A stretch of 54,595 nt of DNA from a virus (IMGVR_UViG_3300045996_000773:1-54595), one strand, 5' to 3'; counted from the stretch's first letter, positions 10,103 through 35,707 are shown. Translations and numbers: made by a program. The notes: generated from the letters alone by a model not told the origin.

Positions 10103-10120
10103 TAAAAGTTCTTTGAAACA

Positions 10121-11738: not shown

Positions 11739-11741
11739 TAA

Positions 11742-12695: not shown

Positions 12696-12699
12696 TACT

Positions 12700-12905: not shown

Positions 12906-12909
12906 GATA

Positions 12910-17470: not shown

Positions 17471-19815
17471 GGCCATCATTCATATATTACCTATTTTCTA
17501 AGAACAAAGCACCGCTTTACGTGGATGCAAACGGCCATGTCCTGGAAGGAGATCCTGGTAACTATTTCAAACCGGACGGCCAACCGGCAAGGCTTAAACA
17601 TTCACCTGATGGATGGAAAGATACGCTTGTAAAATATGCAAGGAACATAAAATATTGGGGCCTGTTCAGAGATTATTCAGTGCCCATGAACTTTGTAGGT
17701 GATGGCAGAAGGATCTTAAGAGATCAGTTTTATAAGTATGGCAGTGAAGCAGTGGTATACTTAGGCATTGCAAAACTTGACAGAAGTTCTGTGCCTTATA
17801 ATTATACTTCCTGGTACATAAGCGAACTTGACTTCTCTAAGTATGAAGAAACAAAGACAGGCATTAAGGTAATGGCTGTTGAAGGTGGCCTGACTAAGTT
17901 TATAAAGTCGTTTGAAAATACTGTTTATGAAATACCGATTGACACTGACCCGGAAAAAATATTCGTAAAAGACGACGGGGTTGTACTCACAGAAAAGTCA
18001 AACCACCAGGTAGTTGACGGTTTTGAGATCACTAAGTCAGATCATGGCACAGAATTTTTCATGCCTTTCATATTCATCAATAGGGAAGGTCGTTCTAGCG
18101 GTATTACATTCCAGGATCAGAATATGGAAGACATAAGCGGCGTAACGTATGCGGATAAATTGCTTTCTTCAAACTGGTGCGCTAAAGCAGCTGACACTAA
18201 CACGTCAACAATCATATTAAGAGTCAGGGGCCAATTAACTTTTGACTGTAATCAACAAGACGCGGCTTTAGGGTTTATAATGCGGTTTTTAAGAAGTAAT
18301 CTGGATATTGGAAGTCAGAACGATTACCGTTTTTTCAATGAGTCGCCTTTGGTAGCGGGCGAGACTTATAATGTACCCGTCAGCATCGATATTCCACTAC
18401 AACCCGGCGAAAGGTTATACCTAGAAGGTATTTTCGGTTCAACCGGATCTGATATTAAAATCGTATTTGACCAGAGAAGTATATTATCCTTTGAATATGA
18501 AGGTAGGTACGGAACTACATACATAGCGGGCCTATACCCTTACCGGGTTTTGGAAGTACTGTTGAATAAAATGACAAACGGCCAGCACACTGTTGCACCT
18601 GGCTGGCTACAAAATAAAAAAGATATTGTACTCACAAGCGGCTTCGGCATAAGGAATTTACCGAATAAAGTTATAAAGACCTCGCTTGCCGATTTCTTTA
18701 AAGCGATGGGTATTTTCTCAGTGGGCTTAACTGTAAAAGATGAGAAGTTGGTAATTGACCAACTGGCTACTTTTTTTACTTCTGATGAAATAGTGGATTT
18801 AGGCGAAGTGGACGACATTCAAATCACGCCAGCTGATGACATTTCCTTCAACACAATTAAGACAGGATACAAGCAGCAGGAGTATAACGATGTGAACGGT
18901 AAATATGAGTTTAACCAGGGCCAGCAGAAAACCACACCGAAGCTAAGGAATGTAAAAGAGCTAGATCTTATTTCTCCTTACAGAGCGGATCCGATAGGCA
19001 TAGAACTACTCAGGCTCAATTACGATAGCCTGAACACCACAGATGCGAAAGATGATAACGACGTGTTCATGTTAAACGTGGAAACGGTCGTGCAAGTCTT
19101 AGTCCAAACGGTAGATTTCGTTTCAGCTGGAAACTTCTTAACGAATCCCGGTAATTATCCATTCACTGCGGGAAACCTTATAAAGATTACAGGCACAGTA
19201 AATAACAACGGCATATACCCGGTAGTAGCTGTAGGTACTAACATTGTGCAGATTGATCCGGCGGTCCCGATCATCGATGAAACAGGCGTAACAGCTACGA
19301 TAACGTTCTTACAAGGTGGAGTAGTCGCGTTAAACAGACCAACTTTTTCGAATTTGTCAGGCATACCGGAAACAATGGAAGATAGTATTTACAACGTACT
19401 GCTTTCCCCAACAACTAATCTGCTTAACAACGGCGGGCTGATACATTCCATTCTGGACCTGATGGACAGTGATGTAATAAAATTCCAAAGTGCTGATCAG
19501 AACGCGGATCTCAGTTATACATTTTTAGGTAACACAGTTACTGAAAAAGCGGATATACAAATAGGAGGTCTGACAGCTAAACATTTTAAACCTTATTACA
19601 TTGACTTAAGAACGATAGTGCCGATAAATGTAATAGAGTTGATAAATAAAACTCCGTTTGGTAAAGTGAAGTTTCAATCAGGCGGAAAAGATTACTATTT
19701 TTTCCTATGGGATGGCGGTATTGCACCGGCGAAAGCAGGAAAGGATAATGACGCGCAGCAGTGGAAGGGGTTAAGCGCGCCTGAAAGCGATTTGAGTAAA
19801 ATTTATAATTATTAA
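17467..19815 (+). CDS. Tail tip / baseplate hub protein
   Basis: 782 aa, beta-rich, directly after the tape measure; TTG start overlapping its stop. Confidence 0.65.
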   Translation: MRPSFIYYLFSKNKAPLYVDANGHVLEGDPGNYFKPDGQPARLKHSPDGWKDTLVKYARNIKYWGLFRDYSVPMNFVGDGRRILRDQFYKYGSEAVVYLGIAKLDRSSVPYNYTSWYISELDFSKYEETKTGIKVMAVEGGLTKFIKSFENTVYEIPIDTDPEKIFVKDDGVVLTEKSNHQVVDGFEITKSDHGTEFFMPFIFINREGRSSGITFQDQNMEDISGVTYADKLLSSNWCAKAADTNTSTIILRVRGQLTFDCNQQDAALGFIMRFLRSNLDIGSQNDYRFFNESPLVAGETYNVPVSIDIPLQPGERLYLEGIFGSTGSDIKIVFDQRSILSFEYEGRYGTTYIAGLYPYRVLEVLLNKMTNGQHTVAPGWLQNKKDIVLTSGFGIRNLPNKVIKTSLADFFKAMGIFSVGLTVKDEKLVIDQLATFFTSDEIVDLGEVDDIQITPADDISFNTIKTGYKQQEYNDVNGKYEFNQGQQKTTPKLRNVKELDLISPYRADPIGIELLRLNYDSLNTTDAKDDNDVFMLNVETVVQVLVQTVDFVSAGNFLTNPGNYPFTAGNLIKITGTVNNNGIYPVVAVGTNIVQIDPAVPIIDETGVTATITFLQGGVVALNRPTFSNLSGIPETMEDSIYNVLLSPTTNLLNNGGLIHSILDLMDSDVIKFQSADQNADLSYTFLGNTVTEKADIQIGGLTAKHFKPYYIDLRTIVPINVIELINKTPFGKVKFQSGGKDYYFFLWDGGIAPAKAGKDNDAQQWKGLSAPESDLSKIYNY

Positions 19816-19818
19816 TAG

Positions 19819-20736
19819 ATGGCTAATCACTTCAACATACCGTTAATATGGCCTTTTAAGATGGTGCCGAGTACTCAAACACCAGGAATCCATTTTCACG
19901 ATGATTGGGCCTGCAGGCAGGTCCGGTCCTGGGAAATGAAGCGCTACTATCAACAGAAATGGGAGAAAGCAGATACCACCCCTCTACAGATCGAGTCGAG
20001 TATCATGCCCGATAACTTGAAAGTATTAAACCAGTACGGTGCTGTAGTGAAACAGTTTACCTGGACCGCTGTAGTAACTGAACTGAGCTATAAGATTTAC
20101 GAAACAACTTTTGATATTAGCGATCTTGCTGATGGAGTTTATTACTTGTATCAGCGAGTGACATTCGGCTCTATCGATTGGGCCTATATCAGCGAGCCGA
20201 TCAGTTCCAAAGTGGAATGGGAAAGGACTTTAGGGTTTACATATAAAAACTCGTTTAACGAAGCGGGGGTTGCCTGGACTGCTACAGGCATTGAAATGAA
20301 ATTTCGCTGCGAAGCAGATATCCAGGACGTAGATTTTTTAAGAGACAGATCTGCGTACATAAATCAGGTAAGGAATCTAACAAACCTTTCGGGCGTTCCT
20401 TACAACGCCTTTACATTAGTGATAGGCGATGCACCAGGTGTTGCTCCTTACATAGTTGATATTTTGAACCGTATATTTTCAACGTGTGACAGTATTGATA
20501 TCGAAGGATTAAAGTATCAAAGTAATGAAGGTAGTAAGTGGGAAATTAACCGGGTGAAAGGCTATCCTTTAATTGGCGCAGAAATAGAAATAGCGCCAGC
20601 AGTGAATAAAAGTTCTCAGCAATCTGCGGATACCACGCCACTTTCATCGGGCATTGTCATGGCTTATAATATTGAAACAGCATTTTTCGGCCCAGGTTCG
20701 CTTGTGCCTGTAACTGATATAGAAGAACAGTCTTAA
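19819..20736 (+). CDS. Minor tail protein
   Basis: 305 aa; synteny. Confidence 0.55.
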   Translation: MANHFNIPLIWPFKMVPSTQTPGIHFHDDWACRQVRSWEMKRYYQQKWEKADTTPLQIESSIMPDNLKVLNQYGAVVKQFTWTAVVTELSYKIYETTFDISDLADGVYYLYQRVTFGSIDWAYISEPISSKVEWERTLGFTYKNSFNEAGVAWTATGIEMKFRCEADIQDVDFLRDRSAYINQVRNLTNLSGVPYNAFTLVIGDAPGVAPYIVDILNRIFSTCDSIDIEGLKYQSNEGSKWEINRVKGYPLIGAEIEIAPAVNKSSQQSADTTPLSSGIVMAYNIETAFFGPGSLVPVTDIEEQS

Positions 20737-20740
20737 AATT

Positions 20741-21892
20741 ATGGTACTAAAATATCACATATCACCCTCAGCCCTAACCGAAGATTTTATTGTAAGAATA
20801 TGGGAAGCCGCCAGCGATGGCGTCGGCGCACACATCTATGAGCAAACAATACCTGCGCCACACGCAGCGCCTGTAACCATTACGGTAAATGGCCTCGATA
20901 GAGTTGTGCATATTGTAAGAATGTATGGCGCTACTTCAGCAGTGCTTTTGCACGAATATAATGTAGAGCCTACTACGGAAGATATAGTTTCTGTGTTTGA
21001 TCCGATAAGGTTTAAAATAGGTGACGGTGGACCAAATACGCCTGCAGCAAATAGCAGTGTCTGTACAACTCCTGAACTTGCAGGTTTACTTGAAACAGAT
21101 TTTTTGATCTTCAGGGCGAACTATGGTCCGCTCTTCCCGACAACGCATTTCACTTTTAATACTGGCGACGGCAGTTGGGAATTAAATTCGCCTGATATCT
21201 TTAACGGCGAGGGCGGCGGTGAAGAGTTTACAATCGTAAGGCTACCTAAAGCAGTAACAGGCATTGTAAATGATAGCGTGGTCGGTAAATGGTTCGCAGG
21301 GTTTGTGGACGTTAGTTCAAATACAGCGTATGCGAGTACTCACCTTAGAAAATTAATTCGCTTCAGCGGTTCACCTGAATATACTTTTTCAGGAAGTATA
21401 CCAATCGGGTATGTATTTTGTTTTCAACATTTCGGCAGTACAGGAACCGCTAAGATCAATTTCAATAACGGTACTTTGCTTTACGCTGGTACCCCAAAAG
21501 CAAGTATTGATATTCCGCGTTACACCGAAGCCGCTTTCGTTTGGGACGGAACTAACTGGAATGTCGTGTACATGACAGACAGCGATTGGGTGAACGGCAG
21601 TTCAACTCCTACACCTGGAACAGTATTAGGTCTTGGCAGGTTTCTGTGTGGCGATGTACCAGCGGGCGATCCACTGTACACTATTGCGCATAACCTGAAT
21701 ATCAGTGGTGACTATATGATCATCCCGACAATAGAATCGAATAATCCGGCGAATTATGCAAAGAATAACAAGATGGGAGTCGCCTGGCATCACCATGCGA
21801 CGGATAAGCCCAATAAAGTGTACGTATCGCTGCAGGAGATAAGCGCGGAAGCGCAGGATTTGTATATTGCCTGGGTTATCATAAAAAGATAG
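20741..21892 (+). CDS. Minor tail / receptor-binding adaptor candidate
   Basis: 383 aa, beta-rich, FVWDGTNW motif seen in fibre-associated domains; no signal peptide. Confidence 0.55.
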   Translation: MVLKYHISPSALTEDFIVRIWEAASDGVGAHIYEQTIPAPHAAPVTITVNGLDRVVHIVRMYGATSAVLLHEYNVEPTTEDIVSVFDPIRFKIGDGGPNTPAANSSVCTTPELAGLLETDFLIFRANYGPLFPTTHFTFNTGDGSWELNSPDIFNGEGGGEEFTIVRLPKAVTGIVNDSVVGKWFAGFVDVSSNTAYASTHLRKLIRFSGSPEYTFSGSIPIGYVFCFQHFGSTGTAKINFNNGTLLYAGTPKASIDIPRYTEAAFVWDGTNWNVVYMTDSDWVNGSSTPTPGTVLGLGRFLCGDVPAGDPLYTIAHNLNISGDYMIIPTIESNNPANYAKNNKMGVAWHHHATDKPNKVYVSLQEISAEAQDLYIAWVIIKR

Positions 21893-21893
21893 T

Positions 21894-21941
21894 AATTATT
21901 TTAACGTTTTTATAATTAATTCAACTATTTAATTAAATTTG
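21894..21941 (+). promoter_or_regulatory. Promoter for the exported-protein module (-7 TAAATTTG), probably leaderless
   Basis: TAAATTTG at 21934-21941, 4 bp before ATG 21946; AATTATTTTAA box at 21894. Confidence 0.6.
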
Positions 21942-21945
21942 CGAA

Positions 21946-24900
21946 ATGAAGAGAATCCTAATCCTATTAATACTTATAATCCCTACCCTATGTTTCTCTC
22001 AGGTTGTAACGCCCGACAGCAAATATGCAACAGGACATGTAAGAAGTATAAAGGACAGCGTTGATAGAATACCTATAGGATTAACAGGTAGTAACGACGG
22101 CAAGAGAATATCTATAACAGGCCAGGATACCGCGCAGATCCGTTACAACAAAGCGGATAGCTCTATTTATGTACATACAGGTACGCAGTTTATTAAAGTT
22201 GGTGGCGGCGGTGGCGGTGCCTGGGGTACGATCACTGGCACTTTATCAGATCAAACCGACTTACAAGCCGCGCTTGATCTTAAATTAAATATTTCCGATT
22301 CTGCCGCTATGCTCGCCAGTTACATTCACAGTTCAGGTTGGGGGCTAATAGAAGCAGGACAAGGATTGAAGGTTGATACTTCTTTAGTTGGTACTCGTAC
22401 TTATATTGAAGCACTCGTCGAAGCTAATAATAATACCCCTACACTTCAGCAAGTATTAGACGCAGGAAGTATATTAACATCAGATGAGACAATAAATGCC
22501 CAGGGTAATATGTTAGCTTTTACTGGCACAGATGATGTAATGTCTATTGCTAATACGGGAGCAGCAGCGCAGCCGCCATTATTTTTGAGCCGGTCAACAT
22601 CTGCAACAAGTTCACCAACATTAGTATCAAGATGGGACACATATACAACTGGTACAGCAGCAGCAGGATTTGGCGGTCAGCTTGGATTAGCGGTTGAAAA
22701 TGCTGCTGGCAATCTTATAACGACAAATCAAATTGATTGGAAGTATTCAACAGCAACGGGCGGTAATGAAACTACCTTAATAGATATTAAGGGAATGGAT
22801 AATGGCTCGTATGAATCATTAATGGAGATACAGAAAAATGGGATTATAAGAGTAAATAATTATTTAGATACTCTTGGAACAATGTCTTGGGTTCGCGCAA
22901 ACTTTAGCACAGGTGGAGGCGGTACTCAAAATCTTTCCTGGGATGCTACAAATCACGAAGTAGATATTTCTGGCGGTGGTACAAGTGCGATCATTCCCTT
23001 TGCTGATTTAACTACTGATGGACTTCTTACTGATGGGTTTCAAGAAATTGCTGGAAACAAATTTTTTAGTCATGCTGGTAGTTTTACTCATAATTCATCA
23101 AGTACAACGGGAGCGAAAATACCACTTGATTTAGTTGGTAATACTACTGGGACACCAGAGGCTGGAATAGGAACAGGATGGAGAACTACAATAGAAAGTT
23201 TAGGAGGTAATCAAATCGGAGCAACATTTGAAGCTATAATGACCGATGTTACAGATAATAGCGAAGATGTTGATTTTGTAATTAAGCTAATGGCCGGAGG
23301 TTCAGCAGCGGCAGAAAGATTCAGGTTTATAAGTACAGGACAATTAAAACTTCCTTTATACACAACTACAACTTCATTTACTGTTACGCCAGTGGGAATG
23401 TTAGTTTTTGATGCAAATGGAAATATAGGAACTCAGGCTATTAGTGGAGGTAGTTATACAAATGAAGAAGCACAAGATGCAGTAGGTACGATACTCAATA
23501 CAAATACTTTCAACTACGATGATGCCACCCCCGCTATCACCTTAAAAACTCAAATGAGTATTACCAGTGATGCGAGTGGAATAAAACTTTCCGGTGATGC
23601 GGCTTCGCCGGGCAACACTAAATATTACGGAACCAACTCAGTTGGCACAAAAGGATTTTATGATTTAGCTGGTGTCTCATGGAGCGGTATAATGCAAGGT
23701 ACAGCGGTTTATAACACTTCACAGACATTAGCCACAGGAGTGGGTTATGATTTCGATGGAGCATCCCCAGCCACGTTTACACTTCCTTCCCTATCTACCA
23801 ACTTCAATAGATTGTATTTTATTAAAAACAGGGGAAGCGCAACGCTTACAGTCGCAAGGGATGGAACGGATAATATCTATACAACTTCGTCAGTGACTTC
23901 ATTTACACTTGCGCCTGGTGAACACGCAATAGTGAGGGCGCAAGGTTCTGCAATTTGGAGTGCGCATCAGGTAATCGGTGAAGTTGACGGAAGTACAAGC
24001 AACGAACTACAGACTATAAACAATACCAGTGATGCAACCAGTCATACAGTTACGCTTTCAAATTCAGGTGGCACTATTCAGTTTATCGAAGGAACAAATA
24101 TTACCCTGACAACAGGTGGTACGGGTGCAGCGGGAACGCTGACCATTGCTTCAACTGGTAGCGGCTTTACAAATCTTACTCAATTCGTATCGCAAACAGC
24201 ACATAGATTATTTTATTCAGATGCAAGTGGTGATGTGCAGGAACTTGCTTTTGGAACAAGCGGTCAATACTTGAAAGCAAACGGTCTTACAACTGCGCCT
24301 TCATGGGACACGCCCGCAGGAAGTGGAACAGTAAATGCAGGAGCAGCTTTAAAGGCGGCTTATTATCCTTCTGCCGCTGCGCTTGTTGATGATTGGATAG
24401 GAGTTGAATTTGGGAATACAAACTTGAACACTAAAATAATTGCGCAGGCCACAACCGAAGTTGGTTTACAAATATCTTTAGCTGATTTGGCAACAGCTAA
24501 TGCTTTTGAAATTAAAAATAGTGGTGGTACTAATTTAATGAAGATTACAGCAGACGGTGAACAAATAGCTTCTACGCTATCAGACCAGGGGGATTACGAT
24601 ATGCAGTTAAATAAGGGAATGTATGTTGCGAATGTAAGCGCCACTGAATATGGTCTAATAGTTAGCTCAAGTACTGGGACAGCCGATGTTTTCGGAATAG
24701 GTAACGGTAGCGGTAATTGGGTAATAGGCACTGTTGCTGGTTCAAAAGGGGTAAGCATGAATAGCGGAGCGGGTTACAATTTTAATTTTTCTAGTCAAGC
24801 AAGACACGCTTTTACCGCAGCAGGAGCGTTGATAACTGGCAATTCCATTGGATTCTTTAATCCAGACAGAACATTGCATGTATATGACCAGACCGGAACA

Positions 24901-27384
24901 ACTAATGCAGTGGTATATGAGGCAAGATTTGAACACAGTGTTTTTGGTACACAAGCAATCGGTTCTGGTGTAGGTATTGAATTTAAGAATACCGGAATCA
25001 TAGCAAGTACATTAGAATCAGTAGCCACAGATATAACAGGAGCAAGCGAAGATGCAGATATTGTTTTTAAAACATTAAGAGCGGGAACATTAACAGAAGC
25101 AGGAAGGTTTATTTCAACTGGCAGTTTAAAACTTGATGCGCTTGCTAATGATAACGCAGAAACAAATCTGGTTGTGTGGAATGCTACTGATAAGGTATTT
25201 GAGTATAGAACGGTGGCATCACTTCCAGGCGGTGGTGGAGGTTCTCCCGGTAGTCCGGTAAATAGCATTCAGTACAACAGCGCAGGAGCATTTGCAGGTA
25301 GCGCAAATCTAACTTATGACGCTTCGCTGGTTACTGCATTGTCAGCAGGACTTGGCGTAACACAAGACGATGCAAAAGGTATTGTTTTAATAAACACTAC
25401 TGCTGCCGCCGCAGGAGCGCAACAAATTTCACCAGCTATTAGATGGTCTGGACAAGGTTGGAAAACAACAGCAACAGCAGCAAGCCAGGAAGTAGAGTTT
25501 CGGGCTTATGTATTACCTACTGAATCGACAACAGCCCCGGTAGCAAGTTGGGTATTGGAGGCAGCGATTAATGGCGGCGGTTATGGTTTAAATTATAGGT
25601 TCACTTCAAACAATAGCATTATAATTGGTTCGGGAGTAATTACTGATCTACGCAATACTACCAACTCAATTGTGATGGCTGGAAGCGAAATAAGGGCAGG
25701 GGCTATTAATGCAGTAGTGTTCACGACAAACGGAATTGATAGCAGTAGCAACACATTTATGGCCGGTGGTCAAAACAGTGTTATCCAAGATGGTGCTGGC
25801 GGCGCAGTTTCATTATGTACTGATTGTTTAACTTATTCAAGTGCCTTATATTCTGTTTTATTAGGCGATGCCAACAAGACAAGAAGCGAAGCAAGTTTAA
25901 CAGCGGGATTTGGAAATTTGAATGCAGTAAGAAATGGTATTGCATTAGGAAACACCATTACATTAGGACAACTTGGCGGCAGCGAAATTTCATCAGCTAA
26001 TAAGTTTGATGATTCGTGGGCTATTGGTAGTAACATTCAGACAGAAGGACATAGAAACGGTACGCTTGGATATAGGATAACAAATACAGGAAAGGAAAGT
26101 ATCGTTATTGGTTCTGGGTATGGCGGTTCTAATTTAAACTTTGGATGGAGTAATGCAATCGGCTTTGGTACTCTTTCGGATAGCGCAACCCTTATCATTA
26201 AACCAGCAGCAGGAGCAACTGGAACTTATGGTGAGACAATGATTCGTGGAGCATTAAGACTTCCGAACAATGTTTATAATTCAGGTGAGCCAATGGTTGC
26301 CTTAGTTGTAGATACTTTGACAGGATTAGTTTACCGTAAGACGCAAACTGGTAGTGGTGGTGCAACCCTTCTTAATCTTATTGACGATGCAAATGCAGCA
26401 GGAACAGTAGCAGCAGGAAACTTTGACCAAACTTGGACATGGAATACTTTAGGCGGTAAGACTGGCTTTGCTCTTTCAGCTAATACAACAGCAGCAGCTT
26501 CTAATGCTCAAATATTGTTTTCGGTTGCTTTATCTGGCGCAAACTCTACATCGAACCAGATAACACAAGCTGTAAATATAAGCAATGTGCATACTGGTAC
26601 TGGCTCGGAAAATTATGGATTATCTCTTAGTGCAAGTGGTGGGGCTACAAGAAACATTGCCTTATTTATTGATGCCGGTGAATTGATGCTTCCTGAAATG
26701 ACTGCGCCTGGAACGCCTCCAACAGGATATGGAACATTATATGAAAAGACAGACGGTTTACTGTACTTTAAAAATGATGCTGGAACAGAGTTCGATTTAA
26801 CAGCAATAGGTGGGGGCAGTGGTATCACAATCGGGACAACTACAATAACAAGTGGAACAAATACAAGAGTGTTATTTAATAACTCAGGGGTTGTAGGTGA
26901 ATATGTAATCAGTGGTACAGGTAACGTAGCAATGACCACTAATGCTGTGTTCACAACTCCAAACTTAGGTACACCTTCAGCAGTTGATTTAACCAATGCT
27001 ACATCTATTCCAGCAGCACAGCTTACGGGTTCAGTAGCAACAGCAAGGCTTACCAATATTTCACAGACAAAGGGAATAAAGTTTGTTTCCCCGACAGCTT
27101 CGGAAAGTCAGTCATTGGCATTTAACGTATCAGCCATGACTGTCACGGCCGCAAGAGTTGTTGTAGTTGGTTCTTCGCCTTCGGTTACTTATACTGTTCA
27201 TTATGGCACTACATACGGAACGCCGGTAGGTACAGTCATAGCATCAAACACGGTTACCACAACAGGGACGCCAACATTAAACGTGACAGATATTCCAGCC
27301 AATAGTTATATGTGGGTAACAACAAGCGCAACAAGTGGAACGGTAAATGATTTTTCAATCTTTATAATAATGAACCAGCAATGA
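21946..27384 (+). CDS. Large modular fibre/adhesin-like protein with N-terminal Sec signal peptide
   Basis: 1812 aa, Gly/Thr/Ser/Ala-rich. Starts MKRILILLILIIPTLCFS|Q. Fibre-type modules WGTITGTLSDQTDLQAAL, TLQQVLDAG, IQYNSAGAFAGS, TPNLGTPS. Confidence 0.8.
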   Translation: MKRILILLILIIPTLCFSQVVTPDSKYATGHVRSIKDSVDRIPIGLTGSNDGKRISITGQDTAQIRYNKADSSIYVHTGTQFIKVGGGGGGAWGTITGTLSDQTDLQAALDLKLNISDSAAMLASYIHSSGWGLIEAGQGLKVDTSLVGTRTYIEALVEANNNTPTLQQVLDAGSILTSDETINAQGNMLAFTGTDDVMSIANTGAAAQPPLFLSRSTSATSSPTLVSRWDTYTTGTAAAGFGGQLGLAVENAAGNLITTNQIDWKYSTATGGNETTLIDIKGMDNGSYESLMEIQKNGIIRVNNYLDTLGTMSWVRANFSTGGGGTQNLSWDATNHEVDISGGGTSAIIPFADLTTDGLLTDGFQEIAGNKFFSHAGSFTHNSSSTTGAKIPLDLVGNTTGTPEAGIGTGWRTTIESLGGNQIGATFEAIMTDVTDNSEDVDFVIKLMAGGSAAAERFRFISTGQLKLPLYTTTTSFTVTPVGMLVFDANGNIGTQAISGGSYTNEEAQDAVGTILNTNTFNYDDATPAITLKTQMSITSDASGIKLSGDAASPGNTKYYGTNSVGTKGFYDLAGVSWSGIMQGTAVYNTSQTLATGVGYDFDGASPATFTLPSLSTNFNRLYFIKNRGSATLTVARDGTDNIYTTSSVTSFTLAPGEHAIVRAQGSAIWSAHQVIGEVDGSTSNELQTINNTSDATSHTVTLSNSGGTIQFIEGTNITLTTGGTGAAGTLTIASTGSGFTNLTQFVSQTAHRLFYSDASGDVQELAFGTSGQYLKANGLTTAPSWDTPAGSGTVNAGAALKAAYYPSAAALVDDWIGVEFGNTNLNTKIIAQATTEVGLQISLADLATANAFEIKNSGGTNLMKITADGEQIASTLSDQGDYDMQLNKGMYVANVSATEYGLIVSSSTGTADVFGIGNGSGNWVIGTVAGSKGVSMNSGAGYNFNFSSQARHAFTAAGALITGNSIGFFNPDRTLHVYDQTGTTNAVVYEARFEHSVFGTQAIGSGVGIEFKNTGIIASTLESVATDITGASEDADIVFKTLRAGTLTEAGRFISTGSLKLDALANDNAETNLVVWNATDKVFEYRTVASLPGGGGGSPGSPVNSIQYNSAGAFAGSANLTYDASLVTALSAGLGVTQDDAKGIVLINTTAAAAGAQQISPAIRWSGQGWKTTATAASQEVEFRAYVLPTESTTAPVASWVLEAAINGGGYGLNYRFTSNNSIIIGSGVITDLRNTTNSIVMAGSEIRAGAINAVVFTTNGIDSSSNTFMAGGQNSVIQDGAGGAVSLCTDCLTYSSALYSVLLGDANKTRSEASLTAGFGNLNAVRNGIALGNTITLGQLGGSEISSANKFDDSWAIGSNIQTEGHRNGTLGYRITNTGKESIVIGSGYGGSNLNFGWSNAIGFGTLSDSATLIIKPAAGATGTYGETMIRGALRLPNNVYNSGEPMVALVVDTLTGLVYRKTQTGSGGATLLNLIDDANAAGTVAAGNFDQTWTWNTLGGKTGFALSANTTAAASNAQILFSVALSGANSTSNQITQAVNISNVHTGTGSENYGLSLSASGGATRNIALFIDAGELMLPEMTAPGTPPTGYGTLYEKTDGLLYFKNDAGTEFDLTAIGGGSGITIGTTTITSGTNTRVLFNNSGVVGEYVISGTGNVAMTTNAVFTTPNLGTPSAVDLTNATSIPAAQLTGSVATARLTNISQTKGIKFVSPTASESQSLAFNVSAMTVTAARVVVVGSSPSVTYTVHYGTTYGTPVGTVIASNTVTTTGTPTLNVTDIPANSYMWVTTSATSGTVNDFSIFIIMNQQ

Positions 27385-27950
27385 TAAAGATACTTATTGC
27401 CATATTATCTTTTGTTTCTGTAATGCCGTTTGCAAATACAGGTAACGTGTTTGCTGTAACAGGCGAGAATGTTGACAGAGCAGGATTAACAGCGTGGTTT
27501 CCTTTTGTTGACCTCGACGCAGATGATGCGAATGATTGCGTTTGTAATGGTGCTGGCAGCGATTATTTGGTTGCAAGAAATTTTGGATTCAGTTTACCAG
27601 CTGGCGCAACTATTAATGGAGTTCTTGTTAGAGTAGAAGCAAGTGAACACAGCGGTGGGACAGAGCCTTTATTAGCACAATTACAAGATGAAACCGCAGC
27701 TTTAGTTGGTTCATCAAAATCAACATCAAACGAAGGTAGTATAAGCGGAACTACTAAAGCCGTTTATACATACGGTAGCACAAGTGATTTATGGGGAGCT
27801 TCATTAACAGAAGCTATTGTGGAAGATGCTGATTTTGGCGTTAGGCTTTGGTTTGCAACATCACATCAGGTTAATATTGATTATGTAACAATGGCTATTG
27901 AATATACAACGCCGGGAGGACGCAGAGTAACATTAATTTCTAAAAAATGA
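27381..27950 (+). CDS. Secreted beta-rich protein
   Basis: N-terminus MIKILIAILSFVSVMPFA; FGFSLPAGATINGVLV and YGSTSDLWG segments. Confidence 0.7.
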   Translation: MIKILIAILSFVSVMPFANTGNVFAVTGENVDRAGLTAWFPFVDLDADDANDCVCNGAGSDYLVARNFGFSLPAGATINGVLVRVEASEHSGGTEPLLAQLQDETAALVGSSKSTSNEGSISGTTKAVYTYGSTSDLWGASLTEAIVEDADFGVRLWFATSHQVNIDYVTMAIEYTTPGGRRVTLISKK

Positions 27951-28276
27951 AAAAACTATTTACAGCCTTAATGTTTGTAGCGGTTGCCGGTTGTGGGCAA
28001 AGAAACAGTGTGATTGATCTTAGGGGGTCAACTGGCGTTAGCTACTTTAACATTGATATTTCTGACAGCGTTAGACCTTTAATTAGGATCACCGCAACTG
28101 ATACAATCATTAATGATACGTTAGGATCTATCAGGTATTTGATCAAAGAAAACCAAAGGCTATACGACGCTAATGAGAAATTAAATGAGAAGTTGTTAAA
28201 AGCTGATAAAATGATGGGCCGGATTGACGGACTACTTCTGTATTTACCCAAACGAGAACAACATTTTAAACTATAA
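27947..28276 (+). CDS. Putative lipoprotein with C-terminal coiled coil
   Basis: MKKLFTALMFVAVAG|C lipobox. Confidence 0.7.
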   Translation: MKKLFTALMFVAVAGCGQRNSVIDLRGSTGVSYFNIDISDSVRPLIRITATDTIINDTLGSIRYLIKENQRLYDANEKLNEKLLKADKMMGRIDGLLLYLPKREQHFKL

Positions 28277-28290
28277 TCTATCTATACCCT

Positions 28291-28731
28291 ATGAAAAAAA
28301 TAATAGCCGCCTTTTTGATCTTATCAGTAGCAGGAGTTTTAAACGCTCAAAGCTATCAACTCAATGTAACATTCACAGCTGACTCCTGGGGACTTATGAG
28401 CGCCTTGTATTCATCAAAAGGAGACAGCACAGCCGCAAGGTTTGAAAGGAAACTGCATAATACCGTACAAGCAAATCTTCCGATCAATTCCTGGTCGCAG
28501 AATATCACCGTAGATACTGTGCCAAACGCTGTGATCAATTGGATATACGCCACGTATAGAAGCTTACCAGAGGGGCTAACAACTCTTTATGGAAATTCAA
28601 TACTCACTGTAATAAACGCCATGACGCATCCCGACATTGTAGCGCATAGGGCTATCATCAATCAACAATACATAGACCGAAGGATAAACGAAATTAGGCC
28701 GGAGGCAAAGAGAAAAAACATTGACAATTAA
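28291..28731 (+). CDS. Secreted protein
   Basis: MKKIIAAFLILSVAGVLNA|Q signal peptide with Gln at +1. Confidence 0.75.
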   Translation: MKKIIAAFLILSVAGVLNAQSYQLNVTFTADSWGLMSALYSSKGDSTAARFERKLHNTVQANLPINSWSQNITVDTVPNAVINWIYATYRSLPEGLTTLYGNSILTVINAMTHPDIVAHRAIINQQYIDRRINEIRPEAKRKNIDN

Positions 28732-28755
28732 ATACTAACTATAAAAACAACGCAA

Positions 28756-29136
28756 ATGAAAAAAACAGCAATTCCATTTCTTACTGCGCTCGTCGTACTT
28801 GTAGCCTGCAACAGTCGTGACGACGACAGTTCAAAAGCGGATCCGAACGCAACGAAACCATACAGCAAAAGGAAAGTAGTCGCTGTCGTGACAAAACCCG
28901 ACAGCTCTAAAGTTCTGAGCGCTGTACTTGAAATTATCAGCGATAAAATCAAGTATGATTCGATTGCAGGTAAAAAGGTGATCGTAACAGACACTATTTA
29001 CGGCGAGTGGGCGCCAATGGCTTTTAAGACACAGGCCGGTAAAGACACTGTAGTGTACGATTGGTTTTTAAAAAGTAGAGACAGTATAAACACAAAAGTT
29101 GAAAACCGAGATCTTGATTCGTTATTAAAAAACTGA
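28756..29136 (+). CDS. Putative lipoprotein
   Basis: MKKTAIPFLTALVVLVA|CNSRDDD lipobox followed by an acidic patch. Confidence 0.75.
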   Translation: MKKTAIPFLTALVVLVACNSRDDDSSKADPNATKPYSKRKVVAVVTKPDSSKVLSAVLEIISDKIKYDSIAGKKVIVTDTIYGEWAPMAFKTQAGKDTVVYDWFLKSRDSINTKVENRDLDSLLKN

Positions 29137-29164
29137 TGATAACCAATAACTAAAAAATCCAACA

Positions 29165-31741
29165 ATGAAAAATCTACTATTAGTTTTTGCAGCAGTCTTA
29201 CTCACAGTAAGCTGCCAGAAGCAAGCAAGAGAAATCTTGCGCCCAGAACTCAAAACTACCACTAAGACTGAAAAACCAAGCAAAAAGTACCGGGAGGGGC
29301 AGTTAATGATTCGCATGAAAGATGGCGGCACAACAGCTAGGCTTGGGTATAGAATCAAACAAAATATTCACACTAAGCACATGCAGCGCAAAGGTGTGAA
29401 AGCGATTGAAATAATCGAGGTTGACGATGTAGAAAAAGAATATGAAAGATTAAAGAATGACCCCAACGTTGAGGCGGTAAGCCCGAATTATATTCGTACC
29501 GTTCCTCAAATAGACCCCGAAGCGCCAAAGGGGTTAGATAAATTAAGCGCATCCCTTTATCCTAATGACCCGTTGTTATCACAGTTATGGGGCATGACCA
29601 CTATCAATGCTCAAACAGCATGGAACGCTGGAAGCCTGGGAGACACAAGCGTTATTGTTGGTTTGATTGACGAAGGTGTAAAGTATTGGCATGAAGATTT
29701 GCGCTGTGTTATTTGGACAAACCCTTTCGATAAACCTGATGGAATTGATAACGATGGCAATGGCTACACAGATGATATTCATGGATGGGATTGGCACAAT
29801 AGCGATAACACAATCTTTGATAACAGGGATTTTCACGGCACACATACGGCAGGAACTATTGGCGCAACCGGAAACAACGGGTTAGGTGTGATTGGCGTAT
29901 GTCCACAGGTGACAATTATTTCGTTGAAGTTCCTTGAAAGTTGGGGTGATGATAGTTGGGCTGTGCAAGCGTTTGATTATATAGCCGATTTAAAAGTTCG
30001 CCACAATCTTAATATTGTTAATACTTCTAATTCGTGGGGCGGTGGTGGATATAACGTTTTTCTTCGTGAAGCCATTAAAAGAAACGGTGATGTACAAATA
30101 CAAGCGTTTTGCGCTGCCGGAAATTCTCAACAGAATAATGATACTGACCAGGATCCAAATTACCCAAGTTCTTATGACTTAGATTGTATCACAGCAGTAG
30201 CCGCAAGTGATTGGTCAAATAACATGGCGGGATTCACTTCTTACGGCGCAACTTCAGTTGATCTTGCAGCACCGGGGACTGGAATTATTTCCTGCTATCA
30301 GGGTTCATTGTATGAAACAAATAAGTACGTTGGGGCGAGTGGAACAAGTATGAGTACGCCACATTGCGCCGGTGCAGATGCTTTATATGCAGCTTCTCAT
30401 CCCGGTAGTACGATAGCCGATCGAAAGGCAGCAATGTTAAACAGCGTTACGGTAGTTCCTGTATGGGCGGGTAAGGTAAGGTCAGGGGGTATATTAAATA
30501 TTGCCACCTTCACAACTCCAACACAAGCGCAAGCGGAAGTAAGTTGTTTAGACCAACCAGCGGATTTAGATACTGTTCGTCCTACAATACCTCCCGAACT
30601 TGAACTATTAGGCACAGCACCGGGACAAGTTTCTTTACGGTGGAGAAAGGGTTCAGACAATCAGGGCATAGATCATTACATTATAACAACTCATGGTTGT
30701 TGCATTGACGGAACGACAGACACAACAGCGACCTTAACAGGATTTCAACCGGGGGTTTATACATGGCACGTTAATGCGAAAGATAATTGGGGGAATATGT
30801 CTGACCCAACCAATACAGTTACCGGCACTATTCCGGGCGATGAGCAGCCGCCGACCTCACCTACAATTACTTCAGTAGCCGTTGATGGGACTAGAATAAT
30901 TGGGGTATTTACGGGAAGTACAGATAATATCGGCATCAGGAAATATGTAGTTTATTGGAGAGAAGCGGGAAAAAATTGGAATCAATTTGACCAATCGAGA
31001 GTAACGTTTCAATTTGTTTTGCAAGATCTTTCTCCCGGAACAACGCATGAAATTTACATGGTTGCACTTGACTACTCAGATAATCAGTCTGCGCCAAGTA
31101 ATACGGTATATGCCACAACAGGAGGCTCACCAACAGAAGATGCACAAGCTCCTACATTAAACGGGGCGCCTTCCCTAAGTGACATTACCACTTCGTCCAT
31201 AAGAGTAAGTTTCCCTGCCGCTTCTGATAACATTGGAGTAACAGGGTATAGGATTAATTGGAGGGCGGCAGGAGGAAATTGGCTTGAAAAATTACTAATA
31301 AGCACATCGCTTACTATTGGTTTATTGTCAGAAGGAACTACTTATGAATTTAATTACCAGGCGAGGGACGCAGCAGGAAATTGGAGCGCAAACAGCGCAA
31401 CAGTATCAGGAACGACATTAGTGACGCCCCCTCCACCACCGCCCCCTCCGCCGCCACCTGGCGATGATATCGCGCCAAGCGTAAATATTACCAGCCCGCA
31501 GGACGGTTATGTAATCCCACTGAAAGGAAACAGAAATGTAAAGATCATATTTACTGCCACCGATAATGTTGGAGTTACATCGACACAGATTTTAATTGAC
31601 GGGCTTGTTGTAGCGAATAACGTTTCGTCTTATATGTGGAATGCAGGTAAAGCATCGCCAGGAAATCATGTAATAACGTGCAAGGCTTTTGATGCGGCGG
31701 GAAATACAGGCAGTAAATCGGTGACAGTTGTTAAAAAATAA
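29165..31741 (+). CDS. Lipoprotein S8 (subtilisin-family) serine protease with FN3 repeats, poly-Pro linker and Ig-like C-terminal domain
   Basis: Lipobox LLTVS|C; catalytic triad LIDEG, HGTHTAG, GTSMSTP; oxyanion AAGN; three (S/T)DN(Q/I)G-containing FN3-like units. Confidence 0.92.
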   Translation: MKNLLLVFAAVLLTVSCQKQAREILRPELKTTTKTEKPSKKYREGQLMIRMKDGGTTARLGYRIKQNIHTKHMQRKGVKAIEIIEVDDVEKEYERLKNDPNVEAVSPNYIRTVPQIDPEAPKGLDKLSASLYPNDPLLSQLWGMTTINAQTAWNAGSLGDTSVIVGLIDEGVKYWHEDLRCVIWTNPFDKPDGIDNDGNGYTDDIHGWDWHNSDNTIFDNRDFHGTHTAGTIGATGNNGLGVIGVCPQVTIISLKFLESWGDDSWAVQAFDYIADLKVRHNLNIVNTSNSWGGGGYNVFLREAIKRNGDVQIQAFCAAGNSQQNNDTDQDPNYPSSYDLDCITAVAASDWSNNMAGFTSYGATSVDLAAPGTGIISCYQGSLYETNKYVGASGTSMSTPHCAGADALYAASHPGSTIADRKAAMLNSVTVVPVWAGKVRSGGILNIATFTTPTQAQAEVSCLDQPADLDTVRPTIPPELELLGTAPGQVSLRWRKGSDNQGIDHYIITTHGCCIDGTTDTTATLTGFQPGVYTWHVNAKDNWGNMSDPTNTVTGTIPGDEQPPTSPTITSVAVDGTRIIGVFTGSTDNIGIRKYVVYWREAGKNWNQFDQSRVTFQFVLQDLSPGTTHEIYMVALDYSDNQSAPSNTVYATTGGSPTEDAQAPTLNGAPSLSDITTSSIRVSFPAASDNIGVTGYRINWRAAGGNWLEKLLISTSLTIGLLSEGTTYEFNYQARDAAGNWSANSATVSGTTLVTPPPPPPPPPPPGDDIAPSVNITSPQDGYVIPLKGNRNVKIIFTATDNVGVTSTQILIDGLVVANNVSSYMWNAGKASPGNHVITCKAFDAAGNTGSKSVTVVKK

Positions 31742-31746
31742 AACGC

Positions 31747-31938
31747 ATGAAAGCGATGGAGCAGCAATGGTATGATGGTAAAAGTTTTTTGGGTGCCCTT
31801 CTTACGATCCTTTTTGCCTGGATCGGCACTATTACGCCGCAGGATTGGGCTACGATTATGGCGGTAGGTGCGGGGGCGACAACTATCATTTATAACATCG
31901 TAAAAACAATTAAAGAAATAAAAAATAAAAGACAATGA
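31747..31938 (+). CDS. Holin-like small membrane protein
   Basis: 63 aa, two hydrophobic segments, basic C-terminus. Confidence 0.55.
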   Translation: MKAMEQQWYDGKSFLGALLTILFAWIGTITPQDWATIMAVGAGATTIIYNIVKTIKEIKNKRQ

Positions 31939-32303
31939 TAGAGTACCTATTGATCATTTCCACCTACACGATCGGCTGCTACTTCGCTGCCCTGGAAGTA
32001 ATTAACAAAATCAGGAAGAGAAACCTAAGCGCCTCACTGAACGAAGTGAAGAAAACATATATGCAGGAAGAATGGAATACAATTCTTTCAATGGTAGGCT
32101 GTCTGTTCATTATCGTCTTAGCCTGGTATATCATCCATAAGAACGATGTACACCTACCGGATTGGATTCAAGATTGGGGCGCTTATGTTATCACGCTTGC
32201 TTCCGGATACTGTTTGCACAGGGTAATCTTTAAGCTACTCGGAACTACCGAAAAAGCTGTCGTTAAAAAGATAGAAGATAAAGGAAAGGAAATGGGCCTG
32301 TAA
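31935..32303 (+). CDS. Membrane protein (holin candidate)
   Basis: 122 aa, three hydrophobic segments. Confidence 0.55.
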   Translation: MIEYLLIISTYTIGCYFAALEVINKIRKRNLSASLNEVKKTYMQEEWNTILSMVGCLFIIVLAWYIIHKNDVHLPDWIQDWGAYVITLASGYCLHRVIFKLLGTTEKAVVKKIEDKGKEMGL

Positions 32304-32313
32304 AAAACAAACT

Positions 32314-32823
32314 ATGAAAGATGCTTTAAAAGAGTTCTGGTTAGATGTAGGCATTGCAACACTTTTTGTTATTGCGATCTTCCTCGTTATGTTTTTCTTT
32401 TCAGGTTGCAAGGTGCTAAAGAATCAAAAGATAAGCACTAAAGATTCAACATCTGTAAACAACTCGAAGGAAGGAAGCATCAAAAGCGATAGCTCGGGAA
32501 GCAAAGCTGATAGGACCAGTACAAAGGAAACGGTTTACTACCCTCAGCCGATTTATATAGAGGGAAAGAACGGAGAAGCTAAGATCATTTTTGTACCACA
32601 ATCAGTAAAAGAATCAGGTACAGAAAAATTAGAACAGGCGCAGATAATAAGAGACACAAGCTGGAAAGAAGCTATCCGCGAAATGACGGTAGCCCTATCA
32701 AATAAAGAACTCGAAAAGAAAACAAAGGTAGGCCCGTCGTTCATTGAGTGGATATTGATTGCAGGAATAGCCCTGCTTTACGTAAAGGATTTTTTACCAT
32801 TTAAAATAATCACTAAAACTTAA
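32314..32823 (+). CDS. Unimolecular spanin candidate
   Basis: N-terminal lipobox FFSG|C and C-terminal transmembrane helix, inside the lysis region. Confidence 0.6.
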   Translation: MKDALKEFWLDVGIATLFVIAIFLVMFFFSGCKVLKNQKISTKDSTSVNNSKEGSIKSDSSGSKADRTSTKETVYYPQPIYIEGKNGEAKIIFVPQSVKESGTEKLEQAQIIRDTSWKEAIREMTVALSNKELEKKTKVGPSFIEWILIAGIALLYVKDFLPFKIITKT

Positions 32824-32828
32824 ATTTT

Positions 32829-33167
32829 ATGTACAGAGACTCAGAAAAATTCGAATGGTTAGTCGCGCGAATTTTCTTCGCTGCCTTACTGACTGTAAAC
32901 CTTCTTTTAATGTTTGTAATTAACCCAGGCGGAGCAACAGATCCGTTTGTAACGGAAACTTTGTGGGAAGCCGTTCATCCGTTCAAGTGGACAGATGCAA
33001 TAGCGCTGATCGCGAACCTGTTTGTATACCTGTACCTGGGCGGCGTGGCAAATAAAGTAGTCAGGCCGATCTACGAATGGATAGAACCGAAAGGTGAAAA
33101 TTCATACGGCTTTACGAAGGCAGTGTTTTGGGTATGTGTAGGGCTAATGCTACTATACTACATATGA
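32829..33167 (+). CDS. Membrane protein
   Basis: 112 aa, three hydrophobic segments. Confidence 0.65.
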   Translation: MYRDSEKFEWLVARIFFAALLTVNLLLMFVINPGGATDPFVTETLWEAVHPFKWTDAIALIANLFVYLYLGGVANKVVRPIYEWIEPKGENSYGFTKAVFWVCVGLMLLYYI

Positions 33168-33607
33168 TCCCGGTCGTACTATATCAAATATTCGTTATAT
33201 GGCTTGCACGTAAAAACGCGAGTTGGAGCAACCCTGCCGATGTACACAAGATAAAACATACACTGAACGGTTTATGCCACTTGGCAGCAGCTGGTATCGT
33301 ATGGTATTTCTTTACCTGGACACTAGCTGTATCGCTACTGCTTATCACAAGGGTTGTTTTCGATGCTACGTACAATATGGCTATGGATAACGGCCTCGGG
33401 TACATACCGCAGAAACCGAAAAGTAGATTGGATCAGTTGGAAAAGCTGTTTTTTAAAATAAACAAGTTAGAAGAATGGTTCATTCTACTTATCGTTAAAA
33501 TAATCTGCAGGCGGAAAACTGTCATACCGGATTACGTGGTAGAACGAGTGGCTATTGTTTTTAGATTAAAAGTCTTATCAACGGGAATAATATTACTATT
33601 TATATGA
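33164..33607 (+). CDS. Membrane protein
   Basis: ATG at 33164 overlaps the previous stop (ATGA); several hydrophobic segments. Confidence 0.6.
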   Translation: MIPVVLYQIFVIWLARKNASWSNPADVHKIKHTLNGLCHLAAAGIVWYFFTWTLAVSLLLITRVVFDATYNMAMDNGLGYIPQKPKSRLDQLEKLFFKINKLEEWFILLIVKIICRRKTVIPDYVVERVAIVFRLKVLSTGIILLFI

Positions 33608-34116
33608 AACCCTCAGAAAACTGTCACGCCTTAATAAAACAATTCGAAGGTTGTAGATTAAAAGCCTATAAGGATTCTGCCGCAGTCTGGACTATCGGCT
33701 ATGGTACTACCTATTATCCGGACGGCAACGCTGTAAGACAAAGCGAAGTAATTACACAAGAGAGGGCTGAGTTTCTTTTGAAGTGGCAGGTCTTAGAAAA
33801 GTCAGGCGGCGTCGATGCTTTGGTGAATGGCCCGCTCAATAAATTAAAGCATGGCTATTCACGCGTAAATCAAAATCAGTTTGATGCATTAGTTTCTTTC
33901 GCTTACAACGTAGGAACAGGCGCCTTAAAGAAAAGCACTTTACTAAAAAAAATCTTAGTAAACGCAAATGACCCGACAATAGAACAAGAGTTTTTGAAAT
34001 GGGATAAAGTGAAAAAGGTAATTAAAGACGAAAGCGATAAGTCGATTATAACCTACGTTCCCGTTAGAGGACTAACTAAAAGAAGACAAGCAGAGGCAGA
34101 TCTGTATTTTAAATGA
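33604..34116 (+). CDS. Endolysin, GH24 lysozyme
   Basis: E-x8-D-x5-T motif in FEGCRLKAYKDSAAVWTIGYG; NQNQFDALVSFAYNVG; GLTKRRQAE. Confidence 0.95.
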   Translation: MKPSENCHALIKQFEGCRLKAYKDSAAVWTIGYGTTYYPDGNAVRQSEVITQERAEFLLKWQVLEKSGGVDALVNGPLNKLKHGYSRVNQNQFDALVSFAYNVGTGALKKSTLLKKILVNANDPTIEQEFLKWDKVKKVIKDESDKSIITYVPVRGLTKRRQAEADLYFK

Positions 34117-35696: not shown

Positions 35697-35707
35697 AACC
35701 AAACACT

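Follow-up and report, generated by a model that had tools for sequence, protein, structure and literature searches.

Morphogenesis of tailed phages is, in the textbook account, wholly cytoplasmic. The coat proteins pIII and pVIII of filamentous phages do bear cleavable signal peptides, and their assembly takes place outside the cytoplasm, yet those phages are non-tailed and non-lytic and assemble the whole particle at the membrane, whereas at the locus described here only the distal host-recognition parts are signalled. This locus is a block of six consecutive plus-strand open reading frames (ORFs; 21946–31741) in the IMG/VR virus record IMGVR_UViG_3300045996_000773, all of which begin with signal-peptide-like N-termini; the record (hereafter the window) spans 54,595 bp with direct terminal repeats and is the complete genome of a temperate siphovirus-type phage, the host of which is probably a member of the Bacteroidota. 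The parts of the block are ordinary (a fibre, a lectin-like domain, lipoproteins and a subtilase); what is unusual is an entire host-recognition cassette with export signals, which would imply an assembly step outside the cytoplasm. We read the block as a mosaic cassette of late genes for exported proteins that act in host recognition or on the envelope; the fibre and adhesin among them would mature in the periplasm and join the tails at lysis, and we judge the chances of this reading to be even.

A run of this kind exists in Cellulophaga phage phi10:1 (KC821618, Assiduviridae), a siphovirus of Bacteroidota in which consecutive leader-bearing genes likewise lie between the tail genes and the lysis region. 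The leaders of its gp091–gp095 end in ...AQ↓T, ...GQ↓N or ...SQ↓G (↓, cleavage site) and are of the Q-rule type; its GenBank record, silent on the leaders, annotates gp091–gp094 as 'structural protein ... experimental MS/MS proteomics' and gp095 as a pectate lyase. The run in phi10:1 differs from that of the window in having neither a subtilase nor lipoproteins, and BLASTP between the two gave no matches at E ≤ 0.01. The ORFs at 27947 and 28756 of the window also invite comparison with Llp of T5 and Cor of T1/phi80/N15, where a small lipoprotein gene stands beside the receptor-binding gene as it does here, but where the receptor-binding protein has no signal peptide; these, with lysogenic-conversion surface proteins, are known cases of the logic by which a phage masks or removes its receptor or remodels the surface. 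Neither ORF has an Llp- or Cor-type match in PHROGs or PADLOC and only gene position is alike; by this analogy Llp and Cor are a plausible model for the two proteins. The fibre-like proteins PblA and PblB of Streptococcus mitis phage SM1 reportedly end on the surface of the producing bacterium as adhesins, and are said to arrive there through phage-mediated lysis, without signal peptides and in a Gram-positive host.

In Porphyromonas gingivalis phages, Matrishin et al. (2023, Microbiome 11:161; PMC10367356) describe five functionally uncharacterised genes that bear Q-rule signal peptides, and the sections of that paper drawn on here take the predicted Gln-exposing cleavage as an adaptation to the host Sec/signal peptidase I (SPI) pathway. 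Unlike the genes of the window, these are read there as modifiers of the host outer membrane, and the same sections draw no link to fibres, to a cassette or to virion assembly. Elsewhere, phage proteins targeted by diversity-generating retroelements are stated to lack signal peptides (PMC6199706), signal peptides were merely counted in two Bacteroides phages (PMC5723332) or go unmentioned (PMC12014285), and within the open-access literature, supplements aside, we found no paper linking signal peptides to tailed-phage fibres.

The six leaders of the window follow one pattern (M-K/I-K/R/N, a hydrophobic core of 11–14 residues and a cleavage-type site), and cores of this length fit signal peptides better than membrane anchors. 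Leader calls rest on a heuristic that requires a nine-residue stretch with a Kyte–Doolittle mean of 2.4 or more, beginning among the first 13 residues, one or more K/R preceding it and the absence of D/E; cleavage sites were read by eye. Among 67 non-nested ORFs of at least 50 aa, the heuristic flags eight, namely the six of the block and those at 34113–34367 and 38313–38795 (minus strand), and it leaves all 23 ORFs from 242 to 21892 unflagged. A run of six or more among eight flagged ORFs of 67 arose at a frequency of 2e-5 in 200,000 permutations. The six consecutive signal peptides of a preliminary description of this DNA, and its remark that the upstream head and tail proteins have none, both hold. 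Small-x-small sites precede Gln in the ORFs at 21946 (CFS↓Q) and 28291 (LNA↓Q), which also have the positive n-region (MKR and MKK), the core of 7–15 residues (ILILLILIIPTLCF and IIAAFLILSVAGVL), the small residues at −3/−1 and the Gln at +1 of the Bacteroidetes Q-rule for SPI substrates, a rule described in Bochtler 2018 (PMC5837995) and PMC10653852. Three further cores end in a lipobox of the form [LVI][ASTVI][GAS]C (VAG↓C at 27947, LVA↓C at 28756 and TVS↓C at 29165). The site at 27381 is weaker (ANT↓G, no Gln), and there only the n- and h-regions conform. A Type IX C-terminal sorting domain (Por_Secre_tail type) was matched in none of the six proteins in Pfam or NCBIfam.

It is scarcely credible that these leaders are an artefact of wrong start codons or of chance hydrophobic N-termini. 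The idea draws on the three small ORFs, which lack homologues, so that their starts follow from ORF logic and the heuristic is their sole evidence; it is opposed by the permutation result, by the conservation of leaders in relatives (below), by the two starts that overlap the preceding stop as ATGA (27381 and 27947; the remaining junctions are 5–28 nt) and by the first downstream Met of the fibre, which lies past residue 110.

The block also has the −7 box attributed to it earlier, real at least as a motif: TAAATTTG fits TAnnTTTG, which we take to be the Bacteroidota −7 promoter element. Genome-wide, TANNTTTG is rarer than expected (31 seen against 54.9 ± 7.1 in shuffles) and has only 10 copies on the plus strand, several of them just 5′ of gene starts, including a similarly placed copy at 3568–3575 ahead of the terminase ATG at 3584. 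Scans for sigma-70 promoters and intrinsic terminators stayed at shuffle level (43 versus 43.1 and 17 versus 15.0) and are uninformative; the terminator scan placed no terminator-like site at either border of the block.

The 1812-aa protein is best explained as a receptor-binding fibre, which by analogy with phi10:1 would be part of the virion and bind the receptor. It consists of a leader, a conserved N-domain (aa 19–85), a Gly-rich linker, a mosaic shaft and a beta-rich C-terminal tip (approximately aa 1690–1812). It lies after the baseplate genes and has the constant N-terminal module, variable C-terminal part and mosaic sharing of a fibre; a conserved N-terminal and a variable C-terminal end together make the architecture of a receptor-binding protein. 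The PHROG map offers no other fibre or receptor-binding candidate, the rest of the genome being head, tail, lysis, integration and replication genes. A search with the whole fibre returned seven proteins, the query included, at E ≤ 0.001 among 8000 scored candidates; of the six others, P0002, P0003 and P0006 have a leader and P0004, P0005 and P0007 do not, and the leaderless mosaic relative P0005 bears a BppL_N baseplate-protein domain. Short stretches are 67–69% identical to proteins of an uncultured phage and a Bradyrhizobium phage, and shaft modules are common to phage proteins of other phyla.

An exhaustive search with query residues 1–124 matched 3099 proteins, the best 150 of which were listed. 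Most of the 3099 matches are due to a repeat, WGxITGxLSxQxDLQxAL, at residues 85–120. In the window the corresponding stretch (22198–22305) reads GxWGxITGTLSDQTDLQAALDxK, a repeat found across the 3099 proteins and frequently recurring within one protein (up to 23 stretches), and internal 'N-domain' matches in P0129, P0163, P0213 and P0253 were rejected as this widespread WGxITGxLSxQxDLQ repeat only. In nine of the best 150, the query aside, the first 85 residues form the protein's own N-terminus; all nine bear a leader, and the N-domain proper is confined to leader-bearing proteins within that set. In an alignment of ten protein clusters the Gln after the leader is invariant (10/10). Scanning viral contigs with this ten-sequence alignment gave 18 loci, in every one of which the leader ends A/G/S-Q directly before the N-domain; viral contigs scanned with one protein at a time (the fibre, the S8 protein of the block or P0003) gave no relatives. 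The 65-aa N-domain is 35–57% identical across loci and the remainder of the fibre differs, with at least two tip types in the C-terminal 120 residues. As leader, Gln(+1) and N-domain recur in all 18 related loci, the fibre leader looks to be under selection.

These loci span at least three phage backbones. The first is that of the window (L007, L008 and L023, with homologues of the 782-, 305- and 383-aa proteins encoded upstream of the fibre); the second is a 30–35-kb type, in which the fibre comes after a 144-aa protein behind portal and head genes; L011 and L021 are of still other types. The upstream neighbour was considered as a conserved docking partner of the N-domain and rejected, the neighbours of different backbones being unrelated at BLAST level. 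Modelling the mature N-domain of the fibre in complex with the 383-aa protein encoded upstream gave a score of 0.00, which is evidence neither way.

The 189-aa protein encoded directly after the fibre had been described as a tip. Its AlphaFold2 (AF2) model is instead a beta-sandwich like that of a carbohydrate-binding module (CBM; mean predicted local distance difference test score, pLDDT, 92.0; predicted template modelling score, pTM, 0.85), and it is no known fibre-assembly protein; searches of Pfam, PHROGs and NCBIfam gave it no family match to tail-fibre assembly chaperones of the Tfa/gp38/gp57A type. The best BFVD matches of the model are phage tail proteins (template modelling score, TM, 0.71, 0.69 and 0.65), and among PDB structures it comes nearest to CBM4-2, CBM22 and the CBA120 tailspike TSP4, with modest scores (TM 0.40–0.47, identity 5–15%, Foldseek probability 1.00). 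The block does lie in the tail-fibre position, as first described, and its fibre and partner belong to phage tail-protein families.

At E ≤ 0.001, 155 relatives of the 189-aa protein were found among 458 candidates (48–76% identity). Of the 120 listed, 89 are leaderless and start M-[APS]-[NST]-TGN; the other 31, the window's protein included, have a hydrophobic leader of 15–30 residues before the same TGN motif. On a quick maximum-likelihood tree of the mature parts only, the members with a leader fall into one clade of 22, another of 7 and two singletons. The leader label takes four changes, and well-supported branches force at least three. Shuffled labels need 27.6 changes on average and none of 500 shuffles was as low as the observed value, from which the leader appears to have been gained at least three times within this phage tail-protein family.

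A scan with the family alignment found 15 viral loci, 14 of them of high GC (0.55–0.71), none with a leader and seven with clearly leaderless starts. In three high-GC phage contigs (L026:8001-10175, L033:2666-4657 and L034:137-2482) the sandwich heads proteins of 663–781 aa as their N-terminal domain, which makes the free-standing form in the window one of several architectures. Two low-GC loci repeat the pair of a leader-bearing fibre and an overlapping or abutting leader-bearing homologue of the 189-aa protein. In L040 a fibre of 1727 aa is followed by a 196-aa partner (45% identical), and the pair lies behind counterparts of the genes for the 782-, 305- and 383-aa proteins; in L047 the fibre has 589 aa and its 175-aa partner is likewise 45% identical. 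L040 is CAXOVY010000015.1, a 22-kb contig of 36% GC with window-type baseplate genes, the leader-bearing fibre, the 189-aa partner and lysis genes. We rejected the idea that the partner is tied to one fibre tip type, as type 1 occurs in the window and L047 and type 2 in L040, and likewise the idea that relatives have an orthologous gene behind the fibre, as the 235-aa protein in L002 and L007 is unrelated to the 189-aa protein. Leader-bearing proteins of 290 and 382 aa with a domain 34–37% identical to the 189-aa protein are encoded at L042:2160-3032 and L043:7752-8900, contigs of Bacteroidia and Chitinophagaceae metagenome-assembled genomes (MAGs) whose context looks chromosomal at least in L043.

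Across related loci only three members of the block recur: the fibre N-domain, the 189-aa partner (in two other phages) and the S8 lipoprotein (in three other phages, just before the lysis genes). L046 has 782/305-like genes, a leader-bearing fibre of 1552 aa, a 441-aa leader protein, a 98-aa signal-peptide protein, a 60-aa lipoprotein, the S8 lipoprotein and then the holin region; L047 has the fibre, the 189-aa homologue, a 144-aa protein (whose signal peptide, …IIYAQ↓N, the heuristic missed), the S8 lipoprotein and a lysis cassette homologous to that of the window. The order of fibre, partner, small leader-bearing genes, S8 lipoprotein and holin thus recurs in L046 and L047, and in L045 leaderless structural genes are followed by a 272-aa lipoprotein, the S8 lipoprotein and lysis genes. 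A second family that exists both ways comes from the same comparison, the leader-bearing 441-aa protein of L046 being 45% identical over 402 aa (E 9e-90) to the leaderless 405-aa protein of L045; the mature parts of the two (L046:7818-9143 and L045:5681-6898) both start with a CGFECGV motif.

This pattern bears on the proposal, made in the preliminary description, of one six-component system in which the fibre would be assembled outside the cytoplasm with lipoproteins as chaperones and the subtilase as fibre maturase. The tightly structured operon and the S8 lipoproteins beside leader-bearing fibres in the window, L046 and L047 speak for it, but homologues of the other five genes occur in none of the 18 N-domain loci, the S8 lipoprotein of L045 comes after leaderless structural genes, no chaperone family was matched, and 14 small leader-bearing ORFs in the equivalent position of nine loci are mutually unrelated, with one weak and largely leader-driven match to the proteins of the window. 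In its strict form we hold the proposal to be highly improbable: of the survey of related phages that was suggested with it, the leader-bearing fibres were borne out at 18 of 18 loci and the co-conservation of the partner genes for the most part was not. The subtilase is as much a companion of the lysis cassette as of the fibre. That the export property recurs while gene content does not speaks against a dedicated six-part machine and for a mosaic cassette, and argues for members that share a destination outside the cytoplasm.

The S8 protein itself is an intact predicted protease that keeps the Asp-His-Ser triad. Its lipobox is followed by a fervidolysin-type pro-domain (aa 32–108), a catalytic domain (162–428), FN3 domains (~490–750), a poly-Pro linker and a Big_7 Ig domain (771–838); PF00082 scores 128.5 bits against a cut-off of 21.8, and PF22148, PF00041 and PF17957 also match. 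In 12 of 12 aligned relatives C17, D169, H224 and S395 are invariant, and the residue after C17 varies (Q, K, R or N). Among 2141 relatives at E ≤ 1e-10 the nearest are 54–55% identical, and these and most of the next twenty have a leader ending x-x-[SG]-C-[QKRN]-K. The protein shares PF00082, PF22148 and the triad with its closest known counterparts, secreted S8 subtilases that have a fervidolysin-type pro-domain and phage-encoded S8 peptidases (phrog_3677), and differs from them in that its clade is lipidated, FN3/Ig-bearing and, in four phages, encoded immediately ahead of the holin. Viral contigs often contain S8 genes (of 596 pattern matches, at least 191 were confirmed; L045–L124 are the best 80 of these, and seven loci were inspected), and in the window, L045, L046 and L047 no other gene separates the S8 lipoprotein from the lysis cassette that follows it. 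A metagenome scan with the closest relative, P0277 (54% identical), did not recover the 49.9-kb contig of P0277. A lipidated FN3/Ig clade in this position would represent an uncharacterised late function.

Leaders acquired by leaderless families, an invariant Gln(+1) and an invariant lipobox Cys make sense only if signal peptidases I and II process the proteins. Leaders that are real without productive export, serving as an inner-membrane tether until the holin fires or being removed by another protease, would suit families that work with and without a leader, in which export is not needed for folding, and would suit the 189-aa leader, which has neither a canonical AxA site nor Gln at +1. We consider this improbable, since a positive n-region followed by a core of 11–14 residues has the topology and the length of a cleaved signal and not of an anchor that keeps the C-terminal part cytoplasmic, since cutting by signal peptidases I and II is implied by the +1 Gln that all 18 fibres share and by the lipobox Cys common to all 12 subtilases, and since the subtilase has a pro-domain of the secretion type.

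The three small proteins between the 189-aa protein and the protease have no family at curated cut-off in Pfam, PHROGs or NCBIfam (NCBIfam scores are below threshold), no match in PADLOC and no usable relatives in the ESM Atlas, where the model for 28291 is of low confidence; the lipoprotein chaperones suggested earlier accordingly have no counterpart in these collections. Surface exposure of lipoproteins in Bacteroidota is signalled by an acidic run within about five residues after the lipidated Cys. The protein at 28756 has an acidic run (C-N-S-R-D-D-D) at +4 to +6, slightly beyond that consensus, and there is none in 27947 (C-G-Q-R-N) or in the S8 protein (C-Q-K-Q). The motif D-[ST]-[AILVMT], presumably that of Bacteroidota O-glycosylation, occurs three times in 27947 against 0.4 expected and five times in 28756 against 0.8 expected, a count reached in none of 300 shuffles.

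An alternative is that the block is an envelope-conversion or progeny-protection set with no part in the virion, its six proteins going to the periplasm or the outer membrane of infected or lysogenic cells and there masking, binding or destroying the phage's own receptor or remodelling the surface. Three of the six proteins are predicted lipoproteins, which stay in membranes; an integrase (phrog_216) marks the phage as temperate, and a −7-type motif belongs to the block itself; the acidic stretch and the glycosylation-type motifs of 28756, the N-domain that is common to phages with unrelated neighbouring tail proteins, and the relatives of the 189-aa domain in leader-bearing bacterial proteins of the Bacteroidia and Chitinophagaceae MAGs all fit such a set, as does the outer-membrane role given to Q-rule phage signal peptides in PMC10367356, in the sections cited above. 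On this account, however, the genome would have no variable receptor-binding protein, and an 1812-aa fibre would make a costly receptor mask. The placement between tail and lysis genes, the overlapping or 5–28-nt junctions and the borders without a terminator-like site fit late expression; the leaderless relatives of the 189-aa protein are tail-protein domains, and virion annotations exist for leader-bearing tail-end proteins in phi10:1. We regard the alternative as unlikely, though the most serious of those considered.

If the block is instead a late cassette of exported host-recognition and envelope-acting proteins, as we prefer, its six products would cross the inner membrane through the host Sec pathway late in infection and lose their leaders to signal peptidase I or II, cleavage of the fibre exposing its Gln. 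Maturation in the periplasm would then include pyroglutamate (pyroGlu) formation, possibly O-glycosylation and, for the protease, removal of the pro-domain. Fibre and adhesin would meet fibre-less tails built in the cytoplasm once the compartments are joined by the action of holin, endolysin and spanin, or else after release; the holes made by canonical holins should be wide enough for this. The lipoproteins and the protease would remain in the envelope and may mask or destroy the receptor, process the fibre or aid release. Kinship with tail proteins, the lack of another receptor-binding candidate and the phi10:1 annotation support a virion role for fibre and adhesin.

Several observations pull the other way. 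The 1812-aa protein matches no Pfam, PHROG or NCBIfam family, hence no curated tail-fibre family, and gave no match to PDB sequences at E ≤ 1; AF2 models the N-domain monomer poorly (pLDDT 54.9). At least three tail backbones with non-homologous upstream neighbours share this domain, so that a common docking partner is not evident. The 189-aa partner goes with two tip types and the L007 fibre combines the tip type of the window with an unrelated next protein, which gives no support to specific docking at the tip. The lipoproteins are not easily virion parts, and the leader-bearing proteins of phi10:1 have no detectable sequence similarity to those of the window. Enrichment of the O-glycosylation motif across the six proteins as a set was rejected (18 seen, 15.3 expected). 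The assembly that includes L040, the one close relative that is genome-derived, is labelled Gammaproteobacteria; the contig may be phage DNA binned wrongly, or else a host hint at odds with Bacteroidota.

A broader proposition follows the same lines, that Bacteroidota tailed phages routinely assemble virions in two compartments, with heads and tails made in the cytoplasm and fibres, lectin-like adhesins and envelope enzymes exported by Sec, matured in the periplasm by host machinery (pyroGlu capping, perhaps O-glycosylation) with processing by a phage-encoded S8 lipoprotein, and docking when the holin opens the membrane. We advance it tentatively and lean towards doubting it. Were it true, the leader would be a portable, repeatedly acquired adaptation that turns a cytoplasmic tail protein into a periplasm-matured one. 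Virion assembly would gain a late extracytoplasmic step tied to lysis, and fibres might bear modifications of host type (pyroGlu, O-glycans) with effects on their stability and on host range, which are relevant to phage therapy and engineering for gut and environmental Bacteroidota; recombinant fibres from the cytoplasm of E. coli might then be wrongly matured. Families that exist with and without a leader offer a ready-made experiment.

Table 1. Features of the exported block and its surroundings in the window (↓, cleavage site).
Feature	Coordinates	Strand	Length (aa)	Remarks
Tape measure, phrog_18891	14135–17470			PHROG search
Three leaderless distal-tail/baseplate genes	17467–21892	+	782/305/383	After tape-measure gene
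TAAATTTG, fits −7 motif TAnnTTTG	21934–21941	+		5 nt ahead of fibre ATG
Fibre-like protein	21946–27384	+	1812	Leader aa 1–18, MKRILILLILIIPTLCFS↓Q
Leader-bearing CBM-like beta-sandwich	27381–27950	+	189	Start overlaps fibre stop (ATGA)
Predicted lipoprotein, orphan	27947–28276	+	109	MKKLFTALMFVAVAG↓C; start overlaps preceding stop
Predicted SPI-exported protein, orphan	28291–28731	+	146	…VLNA↓Q; heuristic
Predicted lipoprotein, orphan	28756–29136	+	126	…VLVA↓C-NSRDDD; heuristic
S8 subtilase lipoprotein	29165–31741	+	858	TVS↓C17; Pfam + lipobox
Lysis cassette (63-aa holin, membrane proteins, u-spanin-like, endolysin)	31747–34116	+		Starts 5 nt past S8 gene

The block ends at the lysis genes, as previously described, with a holin (phrog_20) at 31747 and an endolysin (phrog_7) at 33604–34116. 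Between them, a 169-aa ORF (32314–32823, plus strand) is laid out like a unimolecular spanin: its N-terminal membrane segment ends in a lipobox-like FSG↓C, and a transmembrane segment lies at its C-terminal end. L007, L008 and L046 have comparable ORFs that combine a lipobox with a C-terminal transmembrane segment. After its S8 gene, L047 has homologues of 31935, 32314 (47%), 33128 and 33604 (63.5%). Directly after the endolysin lies an 84-aa ORF with a signal-peptide-like N-terminus (34113–34367, plus strand). The 160-aa predicted lipoprotein at 38313–38795 (minus strand; MKITIMFILLG↓C), between the integrase and a regulator-like gene, found no family match and is a candidate for a surface or exclusion protein expressed in lysogeny.

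On the head side the PHROG map places the large terminase at 3584, the portal at 5348 and head and tail proteins from 8969 to 13356. The 782-aa protein at 17467 is phrog_15220, 'virion structural protein', the 305- and 383-aa proteins after it are unassigned, and homologues of the 782-, 305- and 383-aa proteins (47–66% identity) keep their order in L007, L008 and L040. Downstream of the lysis genes come an exonuclease, the integrase (36763) and then replication genes (exonuclease, Gp2.5-like single-stranded DNA-binding protein, DNA polymerase, primase-helicase and helicase); a search of the window for tRNA genes found none. The phage is a soil phage. Short contigs of 150–530 nt with zero differences across 17000–36000 of the window come from four runs labelled soil metagenome in four studies, one of which may be the source sample, and they include the leader region of the fibre (21985–22219).

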